Translations under genes and position numbers: made by a program
The notes under the pieces: model-generated
Databases searched by the model: none
The model's input: the letters and a program-made list of their open reading frames with translations, nothing else
Told to the model about the DNA's origin: nothing
Part shown: positions 1,421-61,664 of the stretch, in pieces
Numbering within the stretch: the first letter of the stretch is position 1
Layout: the number at the start of each line of letters is the position of its first letter
Source: an uncultured bacterium
GTDB lineage: Bacteria > Armatimonadota > Abditibacteriia > Abditibacteriales > Abditibacteriaceae
DNA: 64,000 bases
Assembly (NCBI GenBank): GCA_963843795.1
Contig: CAWJLW010000010.1
Coordinates: 62,001-126,000 of the forward strand
Direction: 5' to 3'

Positions 1421-1460
1421 CCAATAAGCCTCCTGCAAGTACTTGCAGGAGGCTTATTGG
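1421..1460. terminator. 40-bp perfect palindrome centred on GCAAGTACTTGC; probable bidirectional terminator
   Basis: CCAATAAGCCTCCTGCAAGT|ACTTGCAGGAGGCTTATTGG between convergent genes, with A-run before and T-run after. Confidence 0.75.
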
Positions 1461-1474
1461 TTTTCATCTACAAT

Positions 1475-2029
1475 TTAAACGCCGCTCAGAGCGACGCCGT
1501 TGGTTTCATAGCCGTTGGGATTGTAGCCGGGCAAAGCGGTGTGGGCATTGGCAGCGTTAGCAGCCAGCACGTCCTCGACTTCGCTCACCGAAATGTTGCC
1601 GTTATCGGGCTTGGTAATATCGGGAGTGAAAGCGGTGACTTCATGCGCCATGCGTGTGGGCAACATCGTCGTGCCATTGTCGTATTCCAGTCCGCGACGC
1701 AGCACACAGGTTTCGATTTCCTGAAGGCCGAAAGCCTCACTGAGATATTTGCAGGTCAGAACGGGATCGAATTCCTTGCAGGAAAATACGTCGATAGCGA
1801 CTTCGCCACGTTCGGGAAAAGTGTGAACCGAAATGTGCGATTCGGCGATCATCACAAAACCGCTGATGCCCCAATCTTCGGGCGAAACGCCGACGTAGCG
1901 GGTGACCATCGGCGGCATAATTTTCGTCATGTTGATGCGGCCCGGCAAGGTGTCGAGCAGATCATATAAAGCGGGCAAATCTTGCAACTTGTGCCAGTCG
2001 CCGCGACGTCCTTCAATTACCAAATGCAT
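1475..2029 (-). CDS. speD: Pyruvoyl-dependent S-adenosylmethionine decarboxylase family proenzyme
   Basis: GISGFVMIAESHISVHTFPE...IDVFSC contains the ES cleavage site; AAGGAGG precedes ATG 2029 (MHLVIEG). Confidence 0.85.
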   Translation of the reverse strand: MHLVIEGRRGDWHKLQDLPALYDLLDTLPGRINMTKIMPPMVTRYVGVSPEDWGISGFVMIAESHISVHTFPERGEVAIDVFSCKEFDPVLTCKYLSEAFGLQEIETCVLRRGLEYDNGTTMLPTRMAHEVTAFTPDITKPDNGNISVSEVEDVLAANAANAHTALPGYNPNGYETNGVALSGV

Positions 2030-2256
2030 TGTGGCTGCCTCCTTAGCAGTTGGCAGGGCTTTGTGGCCCCAGCCAAAACCAGCCCGACCGTGGAAGAATC
2101 GAAACCCTTTTCGCGCTGCTTGCATTGCGAAAATTTCTGTTCCGAAACTTTTTCTTACCGGGCCACACTCCTTTCGCGACTATAGAAAATAAACGCTCCC
2201 GCGCCGCGTGACGGGAAACATCTTCTCGACCTTTACAGCAATTTTGTGACACCAAC

Positions 2257-2292
2257 GTGAACGACGTTGTGAACGACGTTATGAACGACGTT
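2257..2292. repeat. 3 x 12-bp tandem repeat (G/A)TGAACGACGTT
   Basis: Units at 2257, 2269 and 2281, in the divergent speD / LptA-like spacer. Confidence 0.9.
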
Positions 2293-2580
2293 TCGCCGAT
2301 TTCCAAAGTCGAAAACGTATATTTTGGGTCACAAGAAAAGTCACACCAAAAAGGGCGTGACTTGATTGCGAACACGACGTTTTTCCGGCTGGTTTGCGGC
2401 AGAAATTAAAGCATAGCAATCGATGCATAAAATCACAATGCGTTGCCTATTTATTTCCAATTTATTTTTGTGATTACAGTCCTCCGTCCGCGCTGCAAGT
2501 ACTTGCAGCGCACGGGCGGAACATCAAAAGTGGCTCAAACGTCGAGACCAAAGCAAATAAGAGGTTAGACTGGAATCATC

Positions 2581-3567: not shown

Positions 3568-3625
3568 GACCAGAAAAATTAAAAAATGGCGTTGCAAGTA
3601 CTTGCAGGCCATTTAATTCTCTCGC

Positions 3626-5758: not shown

Positions 5759-5797
5759 AAAAAAATATGCTGCAAGTACTTGCAGCGCACTTTTATC

Positions 5798-7062: not shown

Positions 7063-10000
7063 ATGCCCAAATTATTTTCCTATTTCACACGTCACACCAC
7101 CCGCGCCTTACTCGTGTGCGCTGCGTCGTTGTTCGTTTCCATAGTGCGTGCACAAGACGAAAAAACGGTGAAAATTGAAGGCGTCAATCCGCAGTTGTGG
7201 GACAAAGCGCACAAAATTTTGGTCGATAATTGTTTGATGTGTCACGGCGAAAAAAAGCCCAAAGCGGGTTTGCGTCTGGACACGCGTGCGGGCGTGCTCG
7301 CAGGCGCGGGCACCGGGCCGGTCGTGATCGAAAACGATCCTAAAAAAAGCCCGTTAGCACAAGTGCTGCGTCCGGGCCACGAAGTGCAAATGCCGCCCAA
7401 AGGCGCGCTCAAAGAAGAGGAAATCGCAGCCATCGAGGCGTGGATTCGAGCCGGCTTTCCCTTTGCCAACGAACCGACAACAGTTAATACAACTGCTTCC
7501 CCAGACAAGTTGGATGCGCAAACCGTCGAGTTTTTTGAAACCAAAGTGCGTCCGGTTTTGGCCAACAATTGCTATTCGTGTCACGGCGAAAAAAAGCAGA
7601 TGGCCAGTTTGCGCGTCGATTCCAAAGCCGCGCTGCTCAAAGGTTCCGATAACGGGCCGGTTTTGGTGCCGAATGATCCCGATGGCAGCAAAATGATTCA
7701 GGCGATCCGGCATTCCGGCCAAATTAAAATGCCGATGGGCCAGCCCAAATTGCCCGCTGCCGATATTGCCAATTTAGAAGCGTGGGTTAAAATGGGCGCG
7801 CCGTGGCCTGGTGGCGAGGTTTCGGCGGCTGCGTTGGCTGCAGCGAAAAATGGCGAATATGTGATTACGCCCGAACAGCGCGCGTTCTGGTCGTTTTCGC
7901 CCGTGCGCAATTATGCGCCGCCCAAAGTGAAAAATGGCGGTTGGGCGACTTCGCCGGTTGATAATTTCGTTCTTGCGGCGCTGGAAAAGCGTAATCTGAC
8001 GCCCAATAAAATGGCCGACCGGCGTACCTTAATTCGCCGCGCGACTTACGATTTGCATGGTTTGCCGCCATCGCCCGCTGAAGTGGAAGCGTTTGTAAAT
8101 GATAAAGCTCCGGACGCGTGGGCCAAAGTTGTGGACAGGCTTTTAGCATCGCCGCGTTACGGCGAGCGTTGGGGCCGTCACTGGCTCGACATCGCGCGCT
8201 ATGCCGATACCAAAGGCTATGTTTTTGAGGAAGATCGGCGTTACGAACACGCTTACAATTACCGCGATTGGGTGGTGCGCGCCTTCAACGAAGACTTGCC
8301 TTATGACCAGTTCATCATTCAGCAATTGGCCGCCGACCGGTTGGTGATGGATGATGTAATGGGCAATCCGCGACCTTTGGCCGCTCTGGGTTTTTTACGC
8401 GTCGGACGTCGTTTTTTGAACAGTCAGCCCGATATTATTGATGACCGCATCGATACGACGATGCGCGGTTTTCAAGGTTTAAGTACGGCGTGCGCGCGTT
8501 GTCACGATCACAAATTCGACCCCATTCCGACCAAAGATTATTATTCGTTATATGGCGTTTTCGCTTCTTCAACCGAACCGCCGCCTCAACCAATTTCGCC
8601 CAAAGAAATTTCGCAGCCGTGGTTGGACAATCAACAGAAAATCCGCGACGCGCAGGGTGAAGCCGATAATTTGCTGCGAGAAACCGTCAAGCAATTGCGC
8701 GAACGCGTGAAAAACAAAGAAGAATTGCCCGAAGAAGTGACCAAAACTTTGGCCGGTTTGCGCGAAGGTCAATTACCCAATGGAGATCAAACAGGCAAAT
8801 TAGAAGCATCGTTTCCCATTGAAGCGCGCGAGAAATGGAAAAGTCTGAACGCGAGTTTGGATACGCTGCGTAAAAATGCGCCACCGACGCCGGAACTGGC
8901 GATGACGATGGCTGATGCGGACAAACCGGTCGAACAACATATTTTCAAGCGCGGTAATCAGGGCAATCAGGGTGATATCGCGCCGCGCCGTTTCCACGCG
9001 ATTTTGAGCAACGGCGAGCGGCCCGAATGGAAAGGCAGCGGACGTTTGGAATTGGCACAGGCAATTGCCTCCAAAGAGAATCCGCTAACAGCGCGCGTGA
9101 TGGTTAATCGCTTGTGGCAGCATCATTTCGGGGCTGGTCTGGTGCGCACGCCAAGCGATTTTGGCACGCGCGGCGATAAGCCCACGCATCCCGAATTGTT
9201 GGATTATCTGGCCAAAAGTTTCATGGATAATGGCTGGTCAATCAAGAAAATGCAACGTTTGATGATGCTTTCCAGCAGCTATCAACAAAGCAGCGATTGG
9301 AACAACCAGAGTTTCCAGGCCGACCCGGAGAACTTGCTTTTATGGCGTCAGAATCGGCGGCGTTTGGAATACGAAGATATTCGCGATTCGCTCCTGCTGG
9401 TCGCAGGCCAGTTGGACGACAAAATTGGTGGGCCAGCCGTTGATGTGTGGCAAGCGCCTTATTCCAAGCGCCGTACTTTGTATGGCGTTATCGAGCGCCA
9501 GAACTTACCGGGCATTTTTCGTACTTTCGATTTCGCCAGTCCCGACAGCAGCAGCGCACAGCGTTTTCGCACTACCGTTCCGCAGCAGGCGTTGTTCATG
9601 ATGAACAACGACTTCGTTATCGAGCAGGCTCAGGCGCTGGCCAAAGCCCCGCAAGTACTTGCAGCAACCAATGACGATGCGCGCGTACGCGCCATTTATC
9701 GTCAATTGTTTGAACGCGCACCCAATGAGCCAGAACTCATGTTGGCCCGCAAGTACTTGCAGAGCGCCAATGCGCCCACTAAACCCGTTGCCGCTGCGCT
9801 TGAATTGTGGAGTTACGGTTATGGCGGCTGGGACGAAGCGGGCAAAAACGTGAAATTCACGCCGCTGGCAATGTTCAAAGATAATCAGTATCGCGTTGGC
9901 GAGAAAATGCCGGACGACGCGCTGGGTTACGTCAGCCTCAGCAACAACGGCGGCCATCCCGGACACGACGCAAGTCACGCCGCAATTCGGCGTTGGACGG

Positions 10001-11965: not shown

Positions 11966-11997
11966 AAAGCGCGTGGCAAGTACTTGCCACGCGCTTT
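11966..11997. terminator. 32-bp perfect palindrome centred on GCAAGTACTTGC
   Basis: AAAGCGCGTGGCAAGT|ACTTGCCACGCGCTTT between convergent genes. Confidence 0.75.
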
Positions 11998-12013: not shown

Positions 12014-13468
12014 TTAAGCGCGCTCGAAGTCAATAAAACCGCGTTTAATATCAACGCCTTTCAGCTTGACTTTCACGCGGTCGCCGACATCCAAACCGCG
12101 TTCGCCCTTCATCACGCGGCCTTCGATGGCGGGCGACATTGTGCGAATGTAAACGCCTTTGCTCGATGCGCCGGTCACGACGGCATCGAAGATTTCGCCG
12201 ACTCGCTCGCGCACTAATGTGGCGGCGGCGACTTTGCGCATCAGGCGCTCGACTTTCTGCGCAGCGGCTTCGCGTTCGGTGCAGTGCGCGGCGATTTTTT
12301 CCAGTTCGTCCACGCTGTAAGGCGCGGGCGCATCGGCGAGAAAGGCCAGCACGATGCGCTGCGTGACCAAATCGGGAAAGCGGCGGTTGGGCGCGGTGCT
12401 GTGCGCGTAATCTTGCAAGCCCAAACCGAAATGCCCGACGCCATCTTCCGGCCCTTGCACCACGACATATTCGCCTCGCCCCAGCAGTTTCAAAACCGAA
12501 AGCGATAGTTCACCGAAATGCGCGGGCGACTTATCGCGCTGCGAAGTCAGGAATTGCGATAGCGCGCGCGCATCGGGTTCTTCGGGCAAGGTTTCGCCAT
12601 ATTCGCGCGCGAGATCGACCAGTCGCGGCCAGCGTTGCGGTTCGCGCACCACGCGCTGAATCATCGCGCGGTGCGCAGCTTCCAAGCGCTGCGCCAGCAC
12701 CATATTCGCCGTGACCATGAAACTTTCGATAATCACGCGCGCCGCATTTTTGCGCGGCACTTCCATGCCGGTCACCTGCCCGTCTTTCACCACAGGCCGC
12801 GCTTCGGGCAGCTCAATATCGAGCGCGCCCTGACCCAATTGATGGCGTTTCAAGCGTTTGGCCGCTTCCCACTGCAACTCGATTTGCGCCTGCAAACCCT
12901 TGACGCGCGCGACTTCATCGGGCACATTTCCGCCATCGAGCCAATCGCCGACGCTCTCGTAATCCAATTTCCCACGATTGAAAACGCGCGCGCGATACAG
13001 CTCGCCGTGCAGCACTTCGCCATCGGCATCAATCGTCATTTCGGTGACGACTGCGAGACGTTCGCTTTCGAAATTGAGCGAAGTCAGGTCGGTCGATAAC
13101 TGCTCTGGCAGCATCGGGAAAACTTCGACGCCGGTGTAAATCGAGGACGTGTTGTGCGCGGCGTGCGAATCAATCGGCGTGCCCGCAAGTACTTGCGACG
13201 CGACATCGGCGATGCCGACGCACACGCGAATGCGATTGTCGTCTAATTTTTCGCACCACTCGATTTGATCCAAATCGCGCGATTCCTCGTTATCAATCGA
13301 CGACCACAATTTGTCGCGCATATCGCGAATCGCAGCGTCAGTTTCGGGCGGCGCTGCGGCAATTTTCTCCAGTTGCGCCTGCACTTCCGAAGAAAATCGT
13401 ATTTCAAAACCAGCATCGCGCGTGGCCTGCTCGGCACGCTCGCGCAAATCATAAGAAGATGAAGTCAT
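12014..13468 (-). CDS. RNB-domain (RNase II/R family) exoribonuclease with C-terminal S1 domain
   Basis: SIDNEESRDLDQ, IADV, HFGL...YAHSTAPNRRFPDL, C-terminal RGFIDF. Confidence 0.88.
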   Translation of the reverse strand: MTSSSYDLRERAEQATRDAGFEIRFSSEVQAQLEKIAAAPPETDAAIRDMRDKLWSSIDNEESRDLDQIEWCEKLDDNRIRVCVGIADVASQVLAGTPIDSHAAHNTSSIYTGVEVFPMLPEQLSTDLTSLNFESERLAVVTEMTIDADGEVLHGELYRARVFNRGKLDYESVGDWLDGGNVPDEVARVKGLQAQIELQWEAAKRLKRHQLGQGALDIELPEARPVVKDGQVTGMEVPRKNAARVIIESFMVTANMVLAQRLEAAHRAMIQRVVREPQRWPRLVDLAREYGETLPEEPDARALSQFLTSQRDKSPAHFGELSLSVLKLLGRGEYVVVQGPEDGVGHFGLGLQDYAHSTAPNRRFPDLVTQRIVLAFLADAPAPYSVDELEKIAAHCTEREAAAQKVERLMRKVAAATLVRERVGEIFDAVVTGASSKGVYIRTMSPAIEGRVMKGERGLDVGDRVKVKLKGVDIKRGFIDFERA

Positions 13469-13504: not shown

Positions 13505-13540
13505 AAAAAGCGCTCTGCAAGTACTTGCAGAGCGCTTTTT
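13505..13540. terminator. 36-bp perfect palindrome centred on GCAAGTACTTGC
   Basis: AAAAAGCGCTCTGCAAGT|ACTTGCAGAGCGCTTTTT just downstream of the minus-strand DUF1552 gene. Confidence 0.8.
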
Positions 13541-15067: not shown

Positions 15068-17599
15068 TTACGCCATCGCCGCCAAAACGGCGCTTTCGAT
15101 CATCTGCTGGCGCATATTGAAATTGTTATCGCGGAAGATTTTCTGCAACAGGGCAGGCGTTTGCGCACCATAGGCTTTGACTGGCTGCTTCACAATATGA
15201 TGAAACAATTTCTCGACCCACGCCGCGTGAACTTCTTGGCTATTGGCCAAAAACTTCGCCAAATCCTGACTGCCGATAAATTTCGCTTCTTTGCCATCGC
15301 GTCCGCGATAACTACCGCTGGCATCGACGTTGACATTGTTTTCCTTGGCACGAATGCGACCAATGGCGTCGAATTTCTCCAGCGAAAAGCCCAGCGGATT
15401 AATGAGATTATGGCAATTCGCGCACGCTGCAGGTTTGGTTTGCATCGCCACGCGCTGCCGCGTCGTCATGTTCGGATGCAATTTCGCTTCCAGTGGCACA
15501 AACGCCGCGGGCGGCGGCATCAAGCGCCGTCCCAGAACGTTGCGCGCAATTAGTACGCCGCGGTGAATCGGCGAACTGCCATCGACATAAGCAAAGCTCG
15601 ATAGCACATAAGGATGGGTTAAAATTCCACTGCGCCGTCCGTAATCCATTTTCACCGGCTGAAACGGCGCGTTGCCGTTCAACGGCTCACCGTAAATTTT
15701 CGCCAGACGACCGTTGAGCCAAATTTTGTCCGAAAGCATCAATTCACGAAAATCCGAAGCCTCGCTCCACACGATGGAATCGAGTTGCATTTCTAACGAC
15801 GTACGCAAATCGGTGCGAATTTGGTCATCGAAATCGGGATACAATTCCGCGCTTTTGGCCAAATCGGGATAGGCATCGACTTTGAGCCAGCTAACCAAAA
15901 ATTCGCGCATTTTCCCGCGCGCGCGCGGGTCGTTACTCATGCGCTGCGCCTGAGCAAGTACTTGCGCGCGCGTTTTCAATTCGTCTTTTTCTGCCGCCTT
16001 CCACAAAATGTCATCGGGTGCAGAATCCCACAGCGCGAACGATAAACGCGACGCGACATCGAAAGCGTTCGATTTCGATGTCGCAAGTACTTGCGATGCA
16101 TTTTTTTCAACAGCAACGGTTTGAATTGTCGCGTGTGCGGAAACAGATGCGGACGCGCTTTCGCGTTTTTCGGCTGCGACTTCACGATACAAAAAGCGCG
16201 GCGATTTGAGCGATAAAAGCACGACACGCTTAATGGCGATTTCCACATTCGGCGCGGCTTTCCATTGGCGGTCGATGAAAAATTCCGCATCTTCATCGCT
16301 TAAAGGGCGACGAAAAGCATAAGTTACGAAGCGGCGACAAAACTCTCTCAACTTCGCTTCGCGGTCCTTGTCGTCGTCAGACACACCAGAAAGTTCGCGC
16401 AAATTATCGCTGACATAAGCGGCGGTTTCGAGTGCGGCCTGCGTCGTGGCATCGTCCCATTCTTTGGAAACCGTGGTGCCGCGTTCATAGCCGATGCTGC
16501 GGTCATCGGGCGGAAAAATCGTATCGGGGGCAAAAACGCGCGGCGCGCTCTGCGGCGACAGCCACTGCCCTTCGATGATTTCTTCCACGCGGTGCGGTCG
16601 CTTCCACGCCAGAGCGACCGAAGCGACCTGAGGCGGCTTTTCCTTGAGTTTTTTCAAGTCGTCGACGCCGGTCACGCCCTTGAACCATTCCAATCGCAGA
16701 GGATAATAACGCCCACCCTGCAACCAGATCTCAGCGCGATATTCGTTGCTATCGCCCGATTTAATGCGCGCATCCACGAGCGGCGTTTTCATGTCGTTGA
16801 GATAAAATTCGCCTGCCTGTTCGGTGCGCAAAACGAACTCGTATAAACCGGTTTCGGGCGCGAAAACCGAGCCTTCCCAGCGCATTTTGAACTGATACGG
16901 ATCGTCTTGTTCGGGCAAAGCGCCCAGAGCAGCGTAACGAAAATCGATCTTGTTATCGACGCGCTCGACCACCGGGTCTCTGTCGCCACGCGTTTTGAAA
17001 TATTTGCCGTTTAAACCACGCCGTTCGTCATGCGCTTGGGTATTGCGAAAGTTTGCGATTAAATCGCTCAGGGCGTTACGGGTTTGATTGACCGTCAAGC
17101 GCGACAACTCGATGCGCGCCGGCGCGTTGCGCGCCTGGGCGATGGGCGAATAAAAAGTTTCGTAAACATAGGCCGCGACGGCTTTGGCATCGCGTTCGGG
17201 CAGTTTCTTGGGCGCATCAGGCGGCATTTCTGCTGCGATGAATTTCGATAGTTCCTGCACCGATTGATCTCCGGCCAATGCCGAACGATAACCTTTGCCG
17301 CCTTCGCCCTTGGCACCGTGACAGGTCGCACACATCTGCGTCCAAATCTGCGCGCCCGTGCGCGCCACACCGGCTTTTGCGGGCGCTTTGGCCATTGTCT
17401 GAGCTTTTGACTGAGAAGTCGATTTAGAGGGCGCCTTGGCTGTTGATTTTTTGGTTTGGGCAACGAGTAGCGGCACCGCCACATAAGCGCGCGGTCGCGC
17501 TGACGCCAGTGCGACCTGCCAGACGCCGGGCACTGCTGCCGCCGCCACCAGGCCGATAGCGAAGCGTGCTTGGGATGCAGAAAAACGCGAAAGTGTCAT
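15068..17599 (-). CDS. Cytochrome c / PA14 / DUF1592 / DUF1588 / DUF1585 protein
   Basis: CATCH; PA14-like [35 protein letters not shown]...[16 protein letters not shown]. Confidence 0.88.
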
Positions 17600-18289: not shown

Positions 18290-19450
18290 ATGCCGTTCGT
18301 TTCCACCTTCCCCTCCGCTTCTGTGGCGACATCTTCGCGCCCGATCTGGGCCGAAATCGACCGCGCGGCGTGGCTGCACAATTTGCACGCGCTTCATCGG
18401 CACACCAACACCGCGCTCCTCTGCGTCCTCAAGGCCGATGGCTACGGGCACGGTGCATTGGGACTGGCACAAACCCTTGAGGCAAGTACTTGCGGCGCTT
18501 CAAAAATCGTGAAAATGCTCGGCGTCGCCTCAGTCGATGAAGGCATTGCGCTGCGCCAAATCGGCATCACGCGTCCGATTCTGCTCTTGTCAGCGGTTTT
18601 GCCCATTGAAGCCGAAGCCCTCGTACAGCACGATCTCACACCCACAGTTTTCACTCATCAGCTGGCGCAGGCACTGGAAAATTCTGCTGCGTGCCGGCAA
18701 AAAACGCTGCCGATTCATGTGAAAATCGACACCGGAATGCACCGTTTGGGCGTGGCTCACGAAAGTGCGCGTGAATTTTTGACTCAGCTACGCGCTTACT
18801 CGCATTTGCTCATCGATGGCATTTACACGCATTTTTCCAGTGCCGATGAAGATGTGACGTTTACCCATTGCCAGCGCCAGCGTTTTGTCGATGCGCTGCC
18901 GGAATTTGCGGTGGCGCGACCGATTTTGCACGCGTCCAACAGCGCGGCTGCACTGCAATTTCCGGCAGCGCATTTCGATATGGTGCGTCCCGGCATTGCA
19001 ACTTATGGATTGTGGCCGAGCGACGATTTGCGCGTGCGGCGCCCGCTGGATTTGCGCCCGGTGATGAATTTGCGCGCGCGCGTCACGCATCTCGCAACTG
19101 TTGCGCGCGGCGAAGGTGTTTCTTATGGCGCGACGTGGTGCGCAACGCGAACTTCGAAAATTGCCATCGTGCCCGCCGGTTACGCCGACGGCTACCCGCG
19201 TCGCGCCAGTGGTAGCGCGCAGGTTCTCATCGGCGGCCAGCGCTGCAACGTTGTCGGGCGCGTCACGATGGATCAGATTTTGGTCGATGTGACCGATTTG
19301 AAAAATATTCAGTTGGGCGATATCGTGACATTGTGGGGACGCGATGGCGACAGCGAACTGAGCGCCGATGAGGTGGCCAACTGGGCGCAAACCATTGGTT
19401 ATGAAATTGTGTGCGGCGTGGCACCGCGCGTCCAACGCATTTTGTGCTAA
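18290..19450 (+). CDS. alr: Alanine racemase
   Basis: VLKADGYGHG, KIDTGMHRLG, VRPG, VSYG, GYADGYPR, VGRVTMDQ, TIGYEI. Confidence 0.97.
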   Translation: MPFVSTFPSASVATSSRPIWAEIDRAAWLHNLHALHRHTNTALLCVLKADGYGHGALGLAQTLEASTCGASKIVKMLGVASVDEGIALRQIGITRPILLLSAVLPIEAEALVQHDLTPTVFTHQLAQALENSAACRQKTLPIHVKIDTGMHRLGVAHESAREFLTQLRAYSHLLIDGIYTHFSSADEDVTFTHCQRQRFVDALPEFAVARPILHASNSAAALQFPAAHFDMVRPGIATYGLWPSDDLRVRRPLDLRPVMNLRARVTHLATVARGEGVSYGATWCATRTSKIAIVPAGYADGYPRRASGSAQVLIGGQRCNVVGRVTMDQILVDVTDLKNIQLGDIVTLWGRDGDSELSADEVANWAQTIGYEIVCGVAPRVQRILC

Positions 19451-20578: not shown

Positions 20579-21640
20579 ATGCAACGTTTGCTTTTCAACT
20601 GGAAATTAAAATTCACCGCATTGGTTTTATCGCTCGCGTTGTGGAGCCATGTGCGCGGCGAAGTGAATCCTTGGGAAACCGCGACTTTTCGCGTGCCGCT
20701 GAAATGGACGGCGCCACCGCGTACTATCGCGCTCAACGGCGACAAGATTCCTGCCATCGTGCGCGTCAATTTGCGCGCGCCGCGTTCACGTTTGCGCGAA
20801 CTTAAGGGTTTTGCGCCCACCAACCCGCTGGCACCCGCCGGAGAAACCACATTAAGTAATGGCGATGTCACGGCAACCCTCGACTTCGCCCTCGCACGGC
20901 GTGGTGAACAGGATGTGCCAATTAAAGCCGAATCGCGTTTCGATGATGTCGAGATTATCGGTGTGCGACCCAGCGATGTCATCGTTCAACTCGACCGTGC
21001 CGAAACGCGCAGTTTTCCGATTCAAGCGCAAGATTTTTCCAGTCGCGGTTATCGCATCGAAAATATGCAACTCGAAAACCAGAGCGCTGTGGTTTCAGGC
21101 TTGTCGAACGCCTTGGAAAAGGTGGTGCGCGTGCGCGCCCGCGTGCGTTCGGGCGCACTAAAATTGAACGTGCGCCAGCGCACCGCAGCGCCACTCGAGG
21201 CCATCGATGCGCAGGGCGAAACCGTGCCCAACGTGCGCGTCGAAAGCGAAAGCGTGGGCGTTTCCGCCGTGCTGCGCGAACGCATCATCGAACGCCGTTT
21301 ACCGGTCAGCGCCCGACTTATTGGCGCGCTGCAAAGCGAAACTCCCGAAATCCAATTGCGACCTTCGAGCCTTCTGGTGCGCGGCCCGGAACTGCAAATC
21401 GAGAAAATCCAAACTTTGTACTGCGAAGTTTCACTCGGAGAATTGCAAACCCAAACCACGCTGCGCCGCCGCGTGGCGCTACCTGCACGCGTCATCGCCG
21501 TCAATAGCGCTTTCGTCACGCTGCAAGTAACTTGCAGCGTCCGCTGTGCCAACTCTCGCCACACCAACACCATCCCCGACTTCGACAGTAAGCGCAATTG
21601 CGACGACTTCGCCCACAATTCCCGCCACGCAGCCAGCTAA
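20579..21640 (+). CDS. cdaR: YbbR/CdaR-like cyclase regulator (true stop probably 21662; extra A near 21530)
   Basis: N-terminal NWKLKFTALVLSLALW anchor, YbbR-like beta repeats, position directly after cdaA. Confidence 0.75.
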   Translation: MQRLLFNWKLKFTALVLSLALWSHVRGEVNPWETATFRVPLKWTAPPRTIALNGDKIPAIVRVNLRAPRSRLRELKGFAPTNPLAPAGETTLSNGDVTATLDFALARRGEQDVPIKAESRFDDVEIIGVRPSDVIVQLDRAETRSFPIQAQDFSSRGYRIENMQLENQSAVVSGLSNALEKVVRVRARVRSGALKLNVRQRTAAPLEAIDAQGETVPNVRVESESVGVSAVLRERIIERRLPVSARLIGALQSETPEIQLRPSSLLVRGPELQIEKIQTLYCEVSLGELQTQTTLRRRVALPARVIAVNSAFVTLQVTCSVRCANSRHTNTIPDFDSKRNCDDFAHNSRHAAS

Positions 21641-24775: not shown

Positions 24776-26146
24776 ATGCGTTCTAAAGACAAGCGCCGCG
24801 AAACCAAAGCCGGAATGCTCGGCGCGCCCGTAAACACGCGCCCCATCGAAGAATGCGCTTCCATGCACGAAGCCTTTATGGCCCTGCCGCGCGCCTGCGG
24901 TGCCTCGACGCAATCCGCCGCGTATCAAATTCTCTATCGCGCCATCGTCGAAGAAGTTCCCTTCGTCCTCGCCGTTTCGGGCATCGCCAGCCTGAGCAAT
25001 CAAACGCGATTCTGGATTAACTCGATGATTCGCGCCGGTTATATCTGCGCCATTTCCACTACAGACGCCTTAACTTATCACGACGGACACGACGCCCTGC
25101 GTCCATTGCCCAAAAATCGCAAAGGCAAAAGCGAAAAAACCGAGCGCCCGATTCGTTCCATCGACCCCAACGGCGACGATGGAGAATATCGCGACAATCG
25201 CGTGATTCGCGTTTACGATGTCGGCTTCAAAGAAGAAATTTTGGAAGAGCAAGACCGCGTCACGCGCTGGCTTTTCCAGCAGCCCGAATTCGGTCATACC
25301 ATGACCACGACCGAGCGTAATTATCGCATGGGCAAACTTTACGGCGCGCTGGAAGAAGCGCGCGAAATTGAACCCGGCTTACTCGCGACTTGCTACGAAT
25401 ACGCGGTGCCAGTTTTCGTCGGCGCGCCCGGCGATGGCAGCAATTCGCTGGGAATGTTGCCCTTACGAATGGACGCCGAACTTTACGGCACCGAATTCGG
25501 CTTCAACTACGACCCGCTGGGCGACGTGATGGAAGCCTGCGCTTATCATTTCTGGGGTTTGTTCTCGAATCCGGTCAAGGAACTCGGCATTTTAGTCATG
25601 GGCGGCGGCGTGCCGAAAAACTTCGCGCTTCAACCCGAACCGTCGTTGTTACAAAATTTCATGCTCGATAGCGGCAAACACGAAGTGCGCGGTTATAAAT
25701 ATGATCTGCAAATCACCAGCGCACCGGTTTCCGATGGCAGCCTCAGTTCTTGTCCGCCCGCCGAAGCCGTGAGCTGGGGCAAAGTGGATCGCGACACGTT
25801 TCAAGATACGACCGCTTCGGTTTACGGCGACTATACGCAACTGTTCTGGCCAATGGCGTATTCGCTGTTCGAACGCAGGCGTCATTTTCAGGCCGAATAC
25901 AATGGTTTAAAAACCAAAGAACGCAGCAAGTACTTGCAGGAAACTCCCGAAGCTCGCGGCCTGTTGCGCTTGGATGGTCCGCCGAAATTGTTCTTAAAAC
26001 GCGACCAGCTAATGCAAGAATTCGTTGAAGTCGCGGGTTCAAAAAAGAACATGGCGCGCATCAAAGAATGGTACCAAGATTCGCCCGAACTGTTCAAAAC
26101 GCTGGCTAAATTGCGCAAAAACGGCGCGCTTGATGTGAAGCTTTGA
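24776..26146 (+). CDS. Deoxyhypusine synthase-like protein (possible homospermidine synthase)
   Basis: VRVYD-like IRVYD, VFVGAPGDGS, GGGVPKNF, GSLSSCPPAEAVSWGK (active-site Lys). Confidence 0.85.
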   Translation: MRSKDKRRETKAGMLGAPVNTRPIEECASMHEAFMALPRACGASTQSAAYQILYRAIVEEVPFVLAVSGIASLSNQTRFWINSMIRAGYICAISTTDALTYHDGHDALRPLPKNRKGKSEKTERPIRSIDPNGDDGEYRDNRVIRVYDVGFKEEILEEQDRVTRWLFQQPEFGHTMTTTERNYRMGKLYGALEEAREIEPGLLATCYEYAVPVFVGAPGDGSNSLGMLPLRMDAELYGTEFGFNYDPLGDVMEACAYHFWGLFSNPVKELGILVMGGGVPKNFALQPEPSLLQNFMLDSGKHEVRGYKYDLQITSAPVSDGSLSSCPPAEAVSWGKVDRDTFQDTTASVYGDYTQLFWPMAYSLFERRRHFQAEYNGLKTKERSKYLQETPEARGLLRLDGPPKLFLKRDQLMQEFVEVAGSKKNMARIKEWYQDSPELFKTLAKLRKNGALDVKL

Positions 26147-27287: not shown

Positions 27288-27380
27288 AATTATAGGGTTT
27301 CGACACAAACTTTGCGCGCACCCGAATCACAAAACGCCCAGCAAGTACTTACTGGGCGTTTTGTAGTTCGGCTTTCAAAT

Positions 27381-32141: not shown

Positions 32142-32192
32142 GGACGCAAGTAACTTGCGGCAGGCATTTGCCGCGAATTTTAGGAAACCATT

Positions 32193-33004: not shown

Positions 33005-33052
33005 AATTCACTACAAGCCGCTGCAAGTACTTGCAGCGGCTTGTAGTGAATT
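33005..33052. repeat. 48-bp perfect palindrome centred on GCAAGTACTTGC
   Basis: AATTCACTACAAGCCGCTGCAAGT|ACTTGCAGCGGCTTGTAGTGAATT. Confidence 0.95.
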
Positions 33053-35067: not shown

Positions 35068-35103
35068 CTTTTAGCTGCTGCAAGTACTTGCAGCAGCTAA
35101 AAG
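35068..35103. repeat. 36-bp perfect palindrome centred on GCAAGTACTTGC
   Basis: CTTTTAGCTGCTGCAAGT|ACTTGCAGCAGCTAAAAG. Confidence 0.92.
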
Positions 35104-47233: not shown

Positions 47234-47402
47234 GTTTTTGCTGTTGCAAGTACTTGCAGCGCGCTTTGGTGGTTTTTCTGGCTTGGTGAAGAGAATTTCG
47301 GGGTTTGAAACGCGCTGATATGGGGCAAGTACTTGCCATACAAAGGAAAGTAATTTGCAGCGCGCCCTTGTCAGGCTCGTCTTTTCCGGTCAAGGTGTAA
47401 AT

Positions 47403-49969: not shown

Positions 49970-50033
49970 TAAACCCGTAAAAGCGCACGGCAAGTACTTG
50001 CACGAGTACTTGCCGTGCGCTTTTACGGGTTTA
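49970..50033. terminator. Hairpin with 29-bp arms and a duplicated palindrome core, between convergent genes
   Basis: TAAACCCGTAAAAGCGCACGGCAAGTACT-TGCACG-AGTACTTGCCGTGCGCTTTTACGGGTTTA. Confidence 0.85.
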
Positions 50034-51694: not shown

Positions 51695-51728
51695 AAAAGC
51701 GTTCTGCAAGTACTTGCAGAACGCTTTT
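51695..51728. terminator. 34-bp perfect palindrome centred on GCAAGTACTTGC
   Basis: AAAAGCGTTCTGCAAGT|ACTTGCAGAACGCTTTT between convergent genes. Confidence 0.8.
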
Positions 51729-53056: not shown

Positions 53057-55591
53057 TTACCATTGCACGGTTATCACTATTGGCTTGTTCAAAGCGCTGC
53101 TTTGGATTTGCACTGCATCACCGATGCGTAAAGCTCCCTTTGAGAAATAGATCGTCACTGTCGTATCTTTCAATCCTACATCACTAATCGCAGCCTGGAC
53201 GCCATTAATGGCAGCGCCGCTGGTTAGCGAATCGTTGAACGAATTAAGAAAGCGCGAAGCATCCGAAGGCGTGGAAAAAGACAGTCCCACGCTGGAAGTC
53301 GCAGTGCTCGAAGAAACCGACGAGGGCGTTACAATTGTGTTGGGCGGCGGGTTCGGCCCTGTCGTGGTCAACCCGGAAGTAAAGCGCCAACGCACCAGAG
53401 CCAGTCCACCCGTCGGGCCAGTGCCATTGGCGCGTCCGGCCACAGCAATGCTATAGGTCACACCGGCACGCACCTGCCAATCGCGGCGCGAGGTGCTACT
53501 GCTATCAGTAGCCAGCGAGGGCGCAACTGGCGTTAAAGCCGTCACTGCACTGCCGGTATAGGGCGCGACAACCGGTACGAAGCGGGCCTGCACTAACATC
53601 GCGAAAACACCGTCGGCGGGTGCTGTCCAACGATACCAGATCGAAGCGCCAGCGACATCGGCAGCGTGTCGTGGCTCGCCGTTTTGATTGGTGGCAAGAG
53701 TGGTGTCGCCCACAAGAGTGCCCGAATTCGTAGTCAAAACGCGCGCGTTTTCAAAATCGTCGTTAGGCGGCGAAGGCTTGACCAGCCAACGCAGCAAAGT
53801 GCGCCCGGTGCCTGTGGCACGACCGTCAATCGCAATTTGATAAATCACGCCGCTCGTGATGCGAAAAGTGACACGGCTCACGCGGGCGTTATCGGTAGCA
53901 GTCGCCACACGCGTCAGCGTGTTCAGAACATTGCCGGTGTAAATCGCCATTTGCGGCACAAAACCATCGCCGTTAATTTCAAAAGTGACCTGCCCGTTGC
54001 TTGGAGCCGCCCACGAGTACCAGATCGAGTGTCCGCCCGCATCGCTGCCGTGCAAAGGTTCGCCACTTTGTAAAGTCGCTCCGACATTGGTGCCATAAGT
54101 GCTGCCCGTGTTGCCTGCAAGTACTTGCGCGCTGGCGAAATCATCGTTGGCAGGTTTGGGCGCAGCAGGTGTGGGAGTTGGCGCGGTCTGCAATTGCCAG
54201 CGCAACACGACGCTGCCCGTCGCGACCGGCGTAGTCGCATCGCTATATCCATCAATCGCGATTGCATAGGTTTGACCAGACACAGCATCGAACTGGACGC
54301 GGCTGGTGCGAATATTATCGTCCTGATCGTCGTTAGCGGTTACAGGCGTCAACTGCGTCAGTTGGCTACCGGTATATACCGCCATAACGGTATCGAAGCC
54401 GCTGCCCGCAGTTGAGAAAACCACGCTACCGCTGCTCGGAGCCGTCCAGCGATACCAGATCGAAGCGCCGCCCGGTGTATTAGCGTGCACAGGCTCACCG
54501 CTTTCGCGAGTCGCGCGCACCGAGGTGCCCGTGACGCTACCCGTTGCTCCCGAAATCGGCTGTGCATTAACGAAGTCGTCGTTGGGCGGGCCGGGCACCG
54601 GCGTCGCGGTGGCAATGGGAGTCGCGGTTGGTAAAGGTGTCGAACCGCCGACCTGTCCCCAACCGACATCCAAGAAAATCGCGTAATTAAGCGGTCCGGG
54701 CGCGTGCGGATTGCCCGTCGCAAAGGGCGTCATCAATTCTTCGGCACCGCTGTAAGTGTCTTCATCCAGATGATAAATGCTCGAACCGCCGCTGAAGCTG
54801 GCGGGCGCATACAATTTGGCGCCACTGCTGCTGACCGTACGGGTTTTTGGACCGACAAAAAACAGGTTATTGCTACGTACTGCCGCGCTGCGTTGCGCGG
54901 CGCCCAGACTGGTAATTAGAGTGCCATTAGCGCCCAGCGCTACGTAGCGGTCGAACGAAGAAATCGCGTCGTTGGAAAAACCTGAGCCGTTATACAAACC
55001 GGTGAAGCCCAATCCGTGGCCGAGTTCGTGCAACACAACCGCGAAAAAATCGCTGTCTTTGGCATTGCCATTGGCATCGGTCGGCGGGCGTCCGTCCAGA
55101 CCATAATAAAAATCGCTGTCGCCCAGCACGGTCTGGTTATCAACATCAGAATTGAAAAACGCTACAATGTCGGGCGTAGTGGGATCGAGATCGCCGCCCG
55201 CGAATTGGTTGGCCAAACCTTTGACGTAAAACGTGTTGCTCAGCGGTGGATTGAAACCATTACCACTGGCGAAAAATCCGGCTGGCCCGGCTTGTCCTAG
55301 GGTCGCTAAAGTGGCCGAACCACCTAACGGATCGAAATTGGCTTTGATGCGCACCGGAATAGTGCCCGGCAAACGCTGGCTCCATACCGAAGCCGCTGCT
55401 TCAAAGGCGCGACGGCGCAGCGCTCCCAGAGTTGGGTCGTTGAAGCCTTCATCCGCGCCATCGGCGTAAATCACTTGCACCGGCACCGCCTGCGCGCGCG
55501 GCGCAACAACACTCGCACCAGCGCACAAAATCAATAATGCCCATAAAAGCTGCCAACCGTTGCGCACTTTTTTATCACTGTTTTGCGTCAT
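53057..55591 (-). CDS. Secreted zinc metallopeptidase with three PPC-like beta-sandwich repeats
   Basis: HELGHGLGF zincin motif, ELMTP Met-turn; three repeats P(P/A)NDDF...SIWY.W.AP; Pro/Thr linkers. Confidence 0.85.
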   Translation of the reverse strand: MTQNSDKKVRNGWQLLWALLILCAGASVVAPRAQAVPVQVIYADGADEGFNDPTLGALRRRAFEAAASVWSQRLPGTIPVRIKANFDPLGGSATLATLGQAGPAGFFASGNGFNPPLSNTFYVKGLANQFAGGDLDPTTPDIVAFFNSDVDNQTVLGDSDFYYGLDGRPPTDANGNAKDSDFFAVVLHELGHGLGFTGLYNGSGFSNDAISSFDRYVALGANGTLITSLGAAQRSAAVRSNNLFFVGPKTRTVSSSGAKLYAPASFSGGSSIYHLDEDTYSGAEELMTPFATGNPHAPGPLNYAIFLDVGWGQVGGSTPLPTATPIATATPVPGPPNDDFVNAQPISGATGSVTGTSVRATRESGEPVHANTPGGASIWYRWTAPSSGSVVFSTAGSGFDTVMAVYTGSQLTQLTPVTANDDQDDNIRTSRVQFDAVSGQTYAIAIDGYSDATTPVATGSVVLRWQLQTAPTPTPAAPKPANDDFASAQVLAGNTGSTYGTNVGATLQSGEPLHGSDAGGHSIWYSWAAPSNGQVTFEINGDGFVPQMAIYTGNVLNTLTRVATATDNARVSRVTFRITSGVIYQIAIDGRATGTGRTLLRWLVKPSPPNDDFENARVLTTNSGTLVGDTTLATNQNGEPRHAADVAGASIWYRWTAPADGVFAMLVQARFVPVVAPYTGSAVTALTPVAPSLATDSSSTSRRDWQVRAGVTYSIAVAGRANGTGPTGGLALVRWRFTSGLTTTGPNPPPNTIVTPSSVSSSTATSSVGLSFSTPSDASRFLNSFNDSLTSGAAINGVQAAISDVGLKDTTVTIYFSKGALRIGDAVQIQSSALNKPIVITVQW

Positions 55592-58872: not shown

Positions 58873-58887
58873 TGACACGTCTAGAAA

Positions 58888-59133
58888 TTACTTGCCTTCA
58901 AAGAAGGCGGCGTTTTTGGCGGTGTATTCTTTCCATTCGACTGGCAGGCTGGTGTCGGTGAAGATGGCTTCAACCGGACATTCCGGTTCGCAGGCACCGC
59001 AATCGATGCACTCGGCGGGGTTGATGTACATCTGCGGCGAATCATCATCGCCGTGAATGCAATCGACCGGACACACTTCGACACAGGCTTTATCTTTCAC
59101 ATCAATGCACGGCTCGGCAATCACATAAGTCAT
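58888..59133 (-). CDS. fdxA: 7Fe (3Fe-4S/4Fe-4S) ferredoxin
   Basis: MTYVIAEPCIDVKDKACVEVCPVDCI...ECIDCGACEPECPVEAI. Confidence 0.95.
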   Translation of the reverse strand: MTYVIAEPCIDVKDKACVEVCPVDCIHGDDDSPQMYINPAECIDCGACEPECPVEAIFTDTSLPVEWKEYTAKNAAFFEGK

Positions 59134-59244
59134 ACTGTTTCTCCAGTTAAATCAAATTTCAAGCGGCTGCAGATGACCCTGCAAATAACATGCAAGTACT
59201 TGCGGCACGTTTTAAAAGATACGACGCACCGCCCATGCCGTCCA

Positions 59245-59259
59245 ATACCGATTTCGTAT
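59245..59259. promoter_or_regulatory. LysR-type binding box ATAC-N7-GTAT
   Basis: ATACCGATTTCGTAT (T-N11-A dyad) in the fdxA/lysR divergent spacer. Confidence 0.55.
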
Positions 59260-59350
59260 GCGAGCCTTAACTTCAGGTTATGACCCCAATTCAGGTTATG
59301 ACCCCAATTCGCCCTGCAAGTACTTGCGAGACTTGCAGCATTCGTAATCT

Positions 59351-60274
59351 ATGAACATTCATCAACTCGCGGTTTTTCACGCTGTGGCCGAAAATTCCAG
59401 CGTCACGCGCGCTGCGGAAAAACTTTTCATTTCGCAGCCCGCAGTTTCCAAGCAACTGCGCGAACTCGAGCGCAGTTTAGGCATGGCGCTTTTTCATCGA
59501 CTTTCCACCGGCGTGCGCTTGACCGAAGCGGGCGAGTTGTTGTTGGGTTATAGCCGACAGATTTTCGCTTTGGAAACCGAAGCCGAAGCCGCGCTGCATG
59601 AACTGCATAATTTAGAACGAGGCCGTTTGCGCGTCGGGGCCAGCACGACAATTGGGACTTACGTTTTGCCGCCAATTTGCGCGCGCTTTGGCCGCCAGTA
59701 TCCGGGCATTGATTTGTGGCTCGATATCGCTAACAGCGCGGCGATTATTGAACGTTTGCGCCGTCAGGAAATCGATTTGGCATTAGTCGAAGGTTCATCA
59801 ATTCCACTCGAAAACGAGGAATTTATCGCCGATATTTTTCTCGAAGATCATCTGGTTCCCATTGCCTCGCCTTTTCATCCTTTGAGCTGTTTGCGCGACT
59901 TAAACTTTGAAAAGTTGGCCGAGCAGCCGTTATTGTTGCGCGAAGCCGGTTCGGGCACGCGCGAAGTGCTGGAAGCCGAATTCGCACGACGCGGCGCGAA
60001 GCCGATTCTGAAAATGACATTAGGCAACAGCGAGGCCATCAAACGCGCGGTGAGCGCGGGCGTTGGCCTCAGTTGGATGTCGAAATTGGCGATAGAAAAC
60101 GAAGTCGAAAACGGCAGCTTGAAAATTTTGGGCGACGATTCACTACATATCGCCCGCACGCTGCATCGTCTGCGCGTGCCCGGCCGCTACGAAAGCCGCG
60201 CCGCGCGCGAATTTCAGCGCCTACTGCGCCGCTGGGTTCAAGGCGACGAACACAGCATGGAAACTGAATTGTAA
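59351..60274 (+). CDS. LysR-family regulator (CysL/YeiE-like)
   Basis: SVTRAAEKLFISQPAVSKQ, GASTTIGTY, REAGSGTR, SEAIKRAV. Confidence 0.93.
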   Translation: MNIHQLAVFHAVAENSSVTRAAEKLFISQPAVSKQLRELERSLGMALFHRLSTGVRLTEAGELLLGYSRQIFALETEAEAALHELHNLERGRLRVGASTTIGTYVLPPICARFGRQYPGIDLWLDIANSAAIIERLRRQEIDLALVEGSSIPLENEEFIADIFLEDHLVPIASPFHPLSCLRDLNFEKLAEQPLLLREAGSGTREVLEAEFARRGAKPILKMTLGNSEAIKRAVSAGVGLSWMSKLAIENEVENGSLKILGDDSLHIARTLHRLRVPGRYESRAAREFQRLLRRWVQGDEHSMETEL

Positions 60275-60314
60275 AAATGAAGCGTAGAATGCAAGTACTT
60301 GCCCAATAAATTTT

Positions 60315-61664
60315 ATGCGTTTGCGATTGCAAAACCAGTTTGAAGCCTTGCGCACCTCGTATTTTCTGCTGCCCATGTTGCTGGCCTTGAGCGGCATCGG
60401 CGCGGGATATGGCGCGGTCGCGCTGGATCAATATGTTGAAAACGCCAAGCTCACCGGCTGGTGGTGGATTTATTCGGGCGGCGCCGATGGTGCATCAACG
60501 GTTTTATCGACGATGGCCGGTTCGATCATGACTGTCGCAGGCATCGCTTATTCGATTACTATCGCCGCTTTGGTTCTGGCCTCGACACAATTTGGGCCGC
60601 GCCTCTTGCGCAATTTTATGCGCGATACGGTCAATCAAGTCGTGCTGGGCGCGTTTGTCGGCACCTTTTTATATTGCATTCTGGTGTTGCGCACCGTGCG
60701 CAACGAGCCGGACGGCGGAATGCTGGTGCCGCATCTCGCAGTTTCCATCGCCATCATTTTGACAATTAGCTGCTTGCTCCTCTTAATCTATTTTTTCCAC
60801 CACGTCGCCAGCTCGATTCAAGCGACCGCGATTATCGCTGATGTTGCGCGCGAATTGCACCATACCATCGACCGTTTGTTCCCTTATCACGTCGGTCATA
60901 ACGCGCCCCAGGATCAAAGCGAACCGGCGCTGCCGAACGATTTTCAAGAGCGCGCTATCGCAGTCCGCGCGCACAAATATGGCTATGTGCAAGCGATCAA
61001 CCTCAATCGCTTGTTCACGTTAGCGATGCGCGACAACTGCATTATCAAGTTGGGTTTTCGGCCCGGCGATTTCGTGACGCAGGAAGAGCCGTTGCTGTGG
61101 GTTTACCCCCATTCCACCACGCCGCAGGCGCTGCAAGTACTTGCAGATCACAGTGACAAATTACGCCGCGCTTTTATCATTGGCGAAGGTCGCACACCGG
61201 TTCAGGACGTGGAATTTGGCGTCAATCAGTTGGTGGAAGTGGCGTGTCGCGCGCTGTCGCCCGGCATTAACGACCCTTTTACGGCGATAGCTTGCTTAGA
61301 TCATTTGGGTTCGGCGCTCACACATTTGGCGCAAGTTCCACTGCCCGATGCGTATCGCTATGACGATAGCGGGCAATTGCGCCTCGTGACCGAGCGCATC
61401 AATTTCGCGGGCCTTGCCGATGCCGCTTTCAACATGATTCGCCAATACGGGCGCGACAGTGCCGCGGTGACGATTCGGCTGCTGGAAACCCTGACGCGCA
61501 TCGCTCCGCACGCGCACAACGACGAAGTGCGTCGCGCTTTACTTGAACACGGCGAAATGGTGCAGCGCGATTGCCGCGCTGAATTACCGGATGCCAACGA
61601 CCGTTCGGATGTGAAGGAGCGTTTTGATTTGCTCAAAGCGGCTTTGCAACTTTCGTGCAATTGA
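60315..61664 (+). CDS. DUF2254 membrane protein
   Basis: ASTQFGPRLLRNF, GYVQ, RT..QD, RALSPGINDPFTA. Confidence 0.9.
   Translation: MRLRLQNQFEALRTSYFLLPMLLALSGIGAGYGAVALDQYVENAKLTGWWWIYSGGADGASTVLSTMAGSIMTVAGIAYSITIAALVLASTQFGPRLLRNFMRDTVNQVVLGAFVGTFLYCILVLRTVRNEPDGGMLVPHLAVSIAIILTISCLLLLIYFFHHVASSIQATAIIADVARELHHTIDRLFPYHVGHNAPQDQSEPALPNDFQERAIAVRAHKYGYVQAINLNRLFTLAMRDNCIIKLGFRPGDFVTQEEPLLWVYPHSTTPQALQVLADHSDKLRRAFIIGEGRTPVQDVEFGVNQLVEVACRALSPGINDPFTAIACLDHLGSALTHLAQVPLPDAYRYDDSGQLRLVTERINFAGLADAAFNMIRQYGRDSAAVTIRLLETLTRIAPHAHNDEVRRALLEHGEMVQRDCRAELPDANDRSDVKERFDLLKAALQLSCN

Follow-up and report, generated by a model that had tools for sequence, protein, structure and literature searches.

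What keeps a perfect 12-bp palindrome at about one copy per 1.4 kb in a bacterial chromosome, and what makes use of it? The question was raised by a 64,000-nucleotide stretch (hereafter the window) of the genome of an uncultured member of the Abditibacteriaceae, phylum Armatimonadota (assembly GCA_963843795.1, contig CAWJLW010000010.1, positions 62,001 to 126,000), in which a first-pass annotation, made from the letters alone, had reported about 43 exact copies and about 8 variants of the word GCAAGTACTTGC. The phenomenon is real and apparently undescribed, and a concrete candidate reader can be named for it, a small HNH protein encoded outside the window.

A palindrome iterated over the whole chromosome

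Exactly 43 copies were counted in the window, spanning positions 1435..61144, where 100 dinucleotide shuffles gave a mean of 0.01 and a maximum of 1. The word has a core, AGTACT, and in this species the outer bases GCA..TGC; 23 of the 43 copies extend to TGCAAGTACTTGCA. The variants are six sites with one or two mismatches (the chance mean is 2.96 at two mismatches or fewer), and two 13-mers made of the motif and an extra central base. According to our gene calls, 9 copies are genic, and the other 34 are divided among tandem (22), convergent (6) and divergent (6) spacers. Alignment places the copy at 18482 within alr, so that the totals become 10 and 33, close to the 11 and 32 or so first annotated.

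The genome holding the window (G000, 4.30 Mb in 11 contigs, C6 being the main one) contains 2,567 copies, present on 11 of 11 contigs, while Markov models expect 0.2-0.65 (orders 1-3) or 20 (order 4). The enrichment that the annotation had proposed to check is thus confirmed; orders 5-7 expect 610-2,308 copies, but these models were trained on the motif itself. The runner-up among 12-bp palindromes reaches 33 copies. Three window copies (15954, 16083 and 18482) are identical in contigs from public soil runs, all of one study that possibly includes the source sample, and the nearest named relatives of GyrA are Abditibacteriaceae genomes, with 75-81% identity (8 of 9 loci), which assigns the host to this family.

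With 3,408 genes called in G000 (86% coding, starts approximate), spacers hold 1,812 copies and genes 751, the latter being read as LQVLA (495), KYL (141) or ASTC (115). A copy is held by 50-72% of convergent, 51-58% of tandem and 53-54% of divergent spacers of at least 60 nt; occupancy peaks in convergent spacers, at 72-73% for lengths of 30-150 nt, compared to 49-58% for tandem ones. None of the 48 tRNA/tmRNA genes of G000 contains the motif. Density varies between 21 and 43 copies per 50 kb and is flat over both GC-skew arms of C6, save four low, island-rich bins. The annotation had suggested mapping density relative to ori and ter; the confinement or exclusion typical of matS, SlmA or Noc sites was not seen.

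Eleven long motif gaps were examined, of which 3 are ordinary long genes and 8 look mobile or foreign (a type IV secretion island, a contractile-injection-like contig, insertion-sequence-rich and restriction islands, plasmid- or prophage-like stretches, a sugar cluster). Two motif-free stretches, C3:1-32022, a contractile-injection-system-like cluster, and C6:3590136-3623414, a high-G+C type IV secretion island at a contig end, are possibly recent imports or mis-binned DNA.

One dialect of a family-wide system

The 12-mer itself is nearly absent elsewhere: 0 to 3 copies per genome were found in 40 other genomes, and none in G001, which belongs to the same genus. Absence from related genomes had been named in advance as a sign of artefact, and it is literally observed, yet it refutes nothing, since the relatives use other spellings. 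Among 31 genomes of the class, RAGTACTY is hyper-abundant in six (G000, G001, G009, G012, G015 and G019, hereafter iterators), with 2,695-4,371 copies, compared to 54-255 for reversed controls. It occurs 0-45 times in 18 others (all 13 of g2, 4 of g5, 1 of g7), and 80-396 times in the remaining 7. The outer bases vary with the lineage. CAAAGTACTTTG is found 1,231 times in G001, 11 times in G000 and 0-7 times in four genomes of genus g6; TCGAGTACTCGA is found 2,770 times in G009, 2,510 in G015, 2,261 in G019, 144 in G012, and never in G001 or G000. The dialect of G012 is GAGTACTC, with loose outer bases. Two syntenic metagenome relatives, K and M (from at least 130 loci; G+C 61-69%, mostly 45-90% protein identity to G000), use CAAGTACTTG, again with loose outer bases, at ~1.1 per kb. 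Over 301 genomes of the phylum, RAGTACTY exceeds 396 copies only in the four iterating family members sampled. We conclude that the motif is one dialect of a family-wide system, and that the AGTACT core pointed out by the annotation is common to the dialects of the family. The existence of these dialects had escaped it, as had the purging of the core and the co-occurring, lineage-specific HNH protein described below.

The annotation did not recognise the motif, and neither does the literature searched: no paper with the 12-mer was found, none pairing Abditibacterium with palindromes, and nothing relevant for Armatimonad and palindrome, while for the other dialect strings the 15 of 37 matches listed are eukaryotic cell-biology or methods papers. 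No description of the dialect words or of the phenomenon in Abditibacteriaceae was found in this search of openly accessible main texts; k-mer surveys in subscription journals or supplements could list the words.

Several close relatives nearly lack the core. AGTACT occurs 1, 1, 3, 11 and 19 times in five such genomes (avoiders), compared to 470-654 for a control, and the purge of AGTACT/RAGTACTY is near-total in g2, g5, g7, f11 and f34 (a single AGTACT over 6 Mb in one case), GTAC and CTAG being strongly avoided too. No enzyme responsible for it was found. Because f11 and f34 are two other Armatimonadota families, also nearly without RAGTACTY, avoidance need not belong to the motif system; in addition G000 itself under-uses many other palindromes, which weakens avoidance as a special property of that system. 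The idea that avoiders keep one functional site was rejected, as the 15 residual loci examined are not mutually homologous. In avoiders G024 (contig C98), G020 (C179) and G013 (C24), the few RAGTACTY sites cluster on single contigs, which are likely foreign or mis-binned.

In a RecA tree, G000 stands apart from the g6 iterators (one gene, weak support). The RecA Walker A motif of the family (loci L397-L420) reads GxEGGGKTT, the usual form being GPESSGKTT. Two other repeats were rejected as dialects. G006 (L155, L174, L459-L463) has a distinct palindrome of 22-26 bp, AAGTACGGTCGA WW TCGACCGTACTT, at ~0.5 per kb; it is confined almost entirely to spacers, only 6 of its 124 half-sites falling within aligned coding sequence, and has GTAC and TCGA words in common with the g6 dialect. 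The top repeat of G017 forms an array of ~12 repeats in 20 kb (L161), which resemble integron attC sites.

Sites are evenly spaced, built by substitution and maintained

Copies in G000 are more evenly spaced than in an occupancy-matched null (coefficient of variation of the gaps 0.82 versus 0.93+-0.02). Pair correlation is depleted to 0.47-0.69 at separations of 0.2-1 kb, genic density falls from 0.377 per kb where both flanking spacers are empty to 0.224 where one is filled and 0.137 where two are, and in long genes motif density is twofold higher at depths beyond 1.25 kb. Of the main contig, 81% lies at most 1 kb from a copy, compared to 72% under random placement. We conclude that the user of the site has a reach of ~1 kb.

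K and M are ~82% identical to each other. Of 161 site rows compared between them, 122 agree throughout the core, versus 33% for background 8-mers; rows were run both ways, so that shared sites are counted twice (~61 shared, 39 not). In-gene gains between these two consist of gap-free single-base changes, often synonymous, and intergenic cores persist while their flanks acquire indels. An ortholog is available for 108 in-gene sites of G000; in 92 of these alignments, no gap falls within two codons of the site (background 4,767/5,140, 93%), and the core is kept in 40 of those 92. Sites of G000 are shared with K (28/48) and M (19/39), not with G012 (0/6) or avoiders (0/13); the G009 group shares 2 of 11, each in another dialect at the same position. 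Protein identity to avoider orthologs is 17/50 at sites versus 64%, and 554 of 936 QVL tripeptides are encoded as CAAGTACTT, though GTA is the rarest valine codon. The motif is a maintained signal that costs protein sequence, and not an inserted element. The annotation was right in preferring a short maintained motif to a miniature inverted-repeat transposable element (MITE) or repetitive extragenic palindrome (REP), given the gap-free gains by substitution and the conserved core.

A repeat acting at the RNA level or spread by a transposase, that is terminator hairpins or a REP/MITE remnant, was weighed against these data. On C6, 166 of 261 convergent copies have perfect arms of at least 8 bp ending in A/T tails, G000 contains two Y1-type transposase motifs, and the palindrome of G006 is REP-like, intergenic, and contains GTAC. 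Such arms are found at 262 of 1,124 tandem copies, but at just 18 of 242 divergent and 6 of 648 genic ones; they are site-specific, differing at each copy, and no shared continuation of half-sites was seen. With 751 in-gene copies and gap-free gains, a fixed-length inserted unit, be it REP, MITE or bacterial interspersed mosaic element (BIME), is not matched, and no RNA family holding the motif was listed. This explanation is largely refuted, and we regard it as very improbable; from the distribution of arms, terminator use is real but secondary.

Phased flanks point to a protein acting on DNA

The flanks were said to differ at every site. Their sequences do, but they are not random: besides the hairpin arms, G000 shows a weak consensus, AAAAnCGCGCT..AGCGCGnTTTT, and an A/T content that rises and falls every 10.6 bp, symmetrically on the two sides of the dyad (amplitude 0.038, versus at most 0.011 in the null and 0.006-0.012 for control words). 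Troughs of G+C lie near 14.5, 25.5, 36, 46.5 and 56 bp from the dyad and fade with distance. The phased flanks persist in genic and non-hairpin copies, and 148 pairs of copies 17-120 bp apart stand in helical phase (p=3e-9). As symmetry is seen on leading and sense strands alike, a non-palindromic, replichore-skewed word of the Chi or KOPS type is not matched. In relatives, phasing is partial in G009 (12-33 bp) and marginal in M. Very probably, some protein reads the site in DNA. The annotation had supposed the target of a dimeric protein that binds, methylates, recombines or takes up DNA; a DNA-acting protein with two-fold symmetry does fit the symmetric phased flanks, and the methylase option is without support (see below).

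An abundant nucleoid protein, or gyrase helped by one, could also account for such flanks, by wrapping ~100-130 bp at each site and setting domains of about one gene. The flanks resemble the 130-bp gyrase motif with its 10.75-bp periodic arms, and the gyrase and BIME-2/REP sites of E. coli likewise have symmetric periodic flanks to ~60 bp and an intergenic position (PMC6379681). The highest occupancy in convergent spacers, the even density on both replichores, a ribosomal-protein region with 12 copies in 21 kb, and the single gyrA and single gyrB found by motif in G000 are all consistent with this proposal. Gyrase-type symmetric flanks (period ~10.7 bp, to ~65 bp) were seen in G000 only; the gyrase motif is degenerate versus an exact core here, and REPs are longer and extragenic, whereas the present motif is also substituted into genes. 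Three candidate readers of this kind found no support. The DNA-gate residues of GyrA are the same in iterators and avoiders, which speaks against a change of GyrA specificity; a histone fold is present in 0 of 41 genomes; and tandem-AP2 proteins are present in both groups (18 of 31 genomes) and do not follow dialects. Moreover, selection alone would not easily re-spell thousands of sites. We therefore hold a nucleoid or topology site to be rather unlikely.

Two of the AP2 proteins stand alone in G000 (C6:2124483-2125031, L423; C6 near 1248500, L443) and are possible sequence-specific DNA binders. The TOPRIM region of GyrB has a long acidic insertion in family members that is absent from the outgroup (L163, L183/L184/L187).

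A small HNH protein as candidate reader

The candidate is a stand-alone HNH/zinc protein of 127 residues, encoded at C6:2808804-2809187 of G000. Full-length orthologs (E<=1e-58) were found in five of the six iterators (G000, G009, G012, G015 and G019), and in 0 of the 25 non-iterating genomes of the class, among them two of genus g6 (G006 and G017); in nine other genomes the matches were generic and partial (E>=3.8e-8). In the phylum sample, where only 14 candidates were scored per genome, the gene is carried by all four iterators and by none of the 297 remaining genomes. In 5 of 5 carriers it follows the same sugar-kinase gene in a cell-wall cluster. The family is small (18 clusters, seven representatives below 1e-25, and one named member, from Abditibacteriaceae), and no full-length relative was found among at least 79 viral loci. 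The catalytic His/Asn/His and the zinc cysteines are invariant in 22 sequences, and PF01844 scores above cut-off. The structural model (pLDDT 95) has as nearest fold the HNH domain of EcoKMcrA (Z 7.2, rmsd 2.5 over 80 residues), in a search that barely covered the C-terminal residues 90-127; Foldseek gave no match at E<=0.001. From this co-occurrence, the HNH protein is the most likely reader of the motif, to which it is predicted to bind.

Other enzymes were considered. The orphan beta-class methyltransferase and ComEC/ComEA found no support as readers, for reasons given below. A small GIY-YIG protein of the Ssn type found none either, G000 holding only GIY-YIG frames of 672 and 450 residues; small GIY-YIG proteins are found in G009 and in avoiders G005 and G007. 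PabI and ScaI restriction enzymes were found in 0 of 31 genomes each, in searches where the control queries were silent as well. A PacI-type enzyme with a purged target was rejected, since no 7- or 8-mer with an expectation of at least 8 is absent from G000.

We propose, with a probability of about 0.4, that nicking of the site by the HNH nuclease initiates repair or recombination with a reach of ~1 kb; binding, nicking and the dimeric state are predictions. In this scheme, the motif is a lineage-specific chromosomal address, centred on AGTACT with species-specific outer bases, which point substitution has placed once per 1-1.5 kb, as the comparisons above show. A protein with two-fold symmetry would read the double-stranded site and bend the DNA, with A/T-rich minor grooves at ~4.5, 15, 26, 36 and 47 bp either side of the dyad. 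Acting as a dimer, the HNH protein would nick, or would cut only a distinguishable form, such as the nascent, incoming or unmodified strand. The nick would then start a process of ~1 kb, either the choice of strand in MutS/MutL repair or the RecA-dependent integration of transforming DNA; MutS, MutL, RecA, ComEA, ComEC and DprA were all found in G000. If one site serves its neighbourhood, new sites would be favoured only in gaps. An altered outer-base preference of the reader would drag the whole genome to a new dialect, and terminator hairpins would be a secondary use. In E. coli, nicking requires MutH, which cyanobacteria lack (PMC4390886). PacI and Hpy99I are small dimeric HNH enzymes that act on palindromes (PMC4081073). 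The HNH and Cys4-zinc fold is common to the candidate and to PacI, Hpy99I, KpnI and McrA-type domains; compared to small HNH restriction enzymes, the presumed target here is hyper-abundant in the host, and the C-terminal zinc domain is family-specific in sequence.

Several observations weigh against this proposal. The protein was picked, after about eleven failed candidates, from genes pre-selected for matches in iterator loci (625 of the 3,408 genes of G000), an uncounted number of other lineage genes may share its profile, and four of the five carriers form one clade. In the iterating G001, a genome 63% complete, the gene was not found; G001 and K both lack it at its usual position, and no copy was found in 1.28 Mb of K/M loci. 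The EcoKMcrA match spans residues 1-89 only, its Z score can be commonplace, and it points to modification-dependent defence enzymes. Long-range phasing is clear in G000 only, being not significant in K, G012, G001 or the phage described below. Finally, the scheme does not explain how a cell would survive cutting at ~2,600 of its own sites.

Comparison with highly iterated palindromes and uptake sequences

The closest likeness is to HIP1 (GCGATCGC) of cyanobacteria, which is also a short perfect palindrome found about once per kb, in genes and between them, clade-wide, with alternative spellings in certain lineages and a function that is unresolved (PMC4390886, PMC5861425). The present motif is likewise built and conserved by substitution. 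It differs by its phylum, its AGTACT core with up to 12 fixed bases, its phased flanks and its strong intergenic bias; in addition sister genera purge the core, an HNH protein co-occurs, and no cognate orphan methyltransferase was found. With its AGTACT centre and Abditibacteriaceae host it falls outside the sequence and host definition of HIP1, and GTAC does not appear in the main text of PMC4390886.

Elhai's model for HIP1 offers another explanation: an orphan methyltransferase would mark the core, and methyl-directed mismatch repair would convert near-matches up to a density of about one site per kb. It predicts about one site per 1,000 nt, as observed (PMC4390886), a conserved orphan beta-class methyltransferase does exist (C6:2517365-2518135 of G000, L194; 21 of 31 class genomes), and the extra-base errors described below could stem from base modification. 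The enzyme is however nearest to M.RsrI (GAATTC), has the same recognition segment in iterators and avoiders, and is intact in G005 and G047, which have one AGTACT each; no D12 or C5 methyltransferase was found in G000. The methylase option of the annotation finds no support, the only conserved methyltransferase being equally present in genomes almost without AGTACT, and we judge HIP1-type methylation improbable.

The motif also resembles the DNA uptake sequences of Neisseriaceae (DUS) and the uptake signal sequences of Pasteurellaceae (USS), with thousands of copies, dialects on an invariant core, co-option in terminators, permissive coding positions and AT-rich flanks (PMC3630211, PMC7811141). 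A pilin or competence protein might thus prefer the motif, so that self DNA would be taken up and recombined more, the HNH protein being a bystander. The density of 0.6-1.1 per kb, the dialects on a fixed core, and the terminator and permissive coding use match DUS (PMC3630211), while USS provides the parallel for AT-rich flanks and for a number of sites that saturates near one per fragment (PMC7811141). HIP1 raises transformation (bioRxiv 2024.09.10.611283; PMC13756078). In G000, ComEA, ComEC, DprA, ComF and PilB/T-like genes are present, and foreign islands lack the motif. On the other side, the present motif is palindromic with symmetric flanks, and not a non-palindromic unit paired inverted in terminators, head-to-tail doubles numbering only 13 in the genome. 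For uptake, helical phasing of neighbouring sites would serve no evident purpose, ComEC and ComEA are found equally in non-iterating genomes (5/5 in both groups), and no receptor pilin was tied to dialects, the 36 pilin-like genes being listed only. We know of no uptake sequence that is a palindrome with symmetric flanks. An uptake tag is possible, though we consider it unlikely.

A small nuclease together with a genome-wide palindromic repeat has a precedent in SsnA, a site-specific nuclease for single-stranded DNA, and its NTS sites in Neisseria, which modulate transformation (PMC11893778); SsnA is a GIY-YIG enzyme and NTS is ~30 bp long, whereas the candidate here is HNH. Overall, the motif works like HIP1 and DUS/USS but fails both sequence definitions, and its symmetric helical phasing and nuclease-type candidate partner are found in neither.

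Returning to the HNH nuclease, we put forward as a speculation, which may well prove wrong, that nuclease and co-evolving palindrome form an undescribed chromosome-wide system, in which nicks at a species-specific word present once per gene give methylation-independent strand signals for repair or self-recombination, changes of the enzyme re-spell thousands of sites, and loss of the enzyme leads to loss, and often purging, of the word. If true, no reader of a HIP-like motif other than a methylase would have been identified before. In the case of HIP1, the origin of highly iterated palindromes has been a puzzle for thirty years, in part because the motif is nearly universal among cyanobacteria. 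The Abditibacteriaceae offer a natural experiment, with at least 5 spellings, close relatives with none, core purgers, dialect switches at orthologous positions and one 127-residue candidate. Should the link to the HNH protein hold, it would explain how motifs turn over across a whole genome and would add a new family of site-specific nucleases, with naturally varied specificities of 8-12 bp; even without that link, the 1-kb gap-filling and the phased flanks constrain any model.

Variant sites, phage copies and individual sites of the window

An extra central base is present at 66 sites of G000 versus 0 of 359 sites of K/M. Frameshift-like breaks due to it affect 6 of 78 sites in motif context versus 7 of 3,742 others, and no GTAC-wide assembly errors were seen in G000. 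At the one site covered by contigs of two public runs, the extra base is absent. These data suggest a motif-specific assembly error, possibly due to base modification, with a strain difference as the alternative. Regardless of gene direction, the extra-base variant leans to the leading strand (36:19), as does a T>C variant (77:41, p=0.001, 13 variants tested). For the latter, mere sequencing error was rejected, changes in the main frame being synonymous 21 times versus 5 not.

A tailed phage from IMG/VR (G042, L143-L146; 67,844 bases, 38% G+C) holds 20 exact copies of the 12-mer, flanked by GT..AC; nine stand 12-35 bp ahead of a start codon. GCGC is avoided in this phage, at 0.09 of the expectation, and QueC/FolE-like genes are present; G041 and G044 are smaller related records. 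The phage copies may be mimicry or coincidence.

Within the window, copies with perfect arms lie in convergent spacers at 1435 (14-bp arms, 1421..1460, a co-option resembling a bidirectional terminator), 11976 (10-bp arms, with A- and T-tracts outside, 11966..11997) and 51706 (11-bp arms, 51695..51728), and in tandem spacers at 13517 (12 bp, 13505..13540), 33023 (18 bp, 33005..33052) and 35080 (12 bp, 35068..35103). In another convergent spacer, an exact copy and a degenerate tandem copy share one hairpin (49990..50013), which the 13 head-to-tail doubles of the genome resemble. Armless genic copies are found on the plus strand at 9651 (QVL frame) and 9749 (KYL frame; both within 9651..9760). 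Further plus-strand genic copies lie in alr, for alanine racemase (18482..18493, ASTC frame, in a variable loop, identical in contigs of two runs), in a gene resembling homospermidine/deoxyhypusine synthases (25926..25937, KYL frame, where the non-iterating ortholog has other residues), in the agmatinase gene (29214..29225, ASTC frame), and at 61133..61144 (QVL frame, the last of the window). On the minus strand, genic copies are found in an RNase R/II-family gene (13185..13196, QVL frame), at 15954..16094 (two copies, both identical in a public-run contig) and at 54117..54128 (QVL frame).

One-mismatch copies are found at 27341..27352, 29135 and 61885. The contigs of two runs lack the extra base of the 13-mer GCAAGTAACTTGC at 32146..32158, which is therefore probably a perfect copy altered by an assembly error or by strain variation; the second 13-mer, at 21523..21535 within a gene, is not resolved by public-run contigs. 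Finally, relA/spoT is split over three overlapping frames (window 47355-49967), probably by assembly frameshifts.

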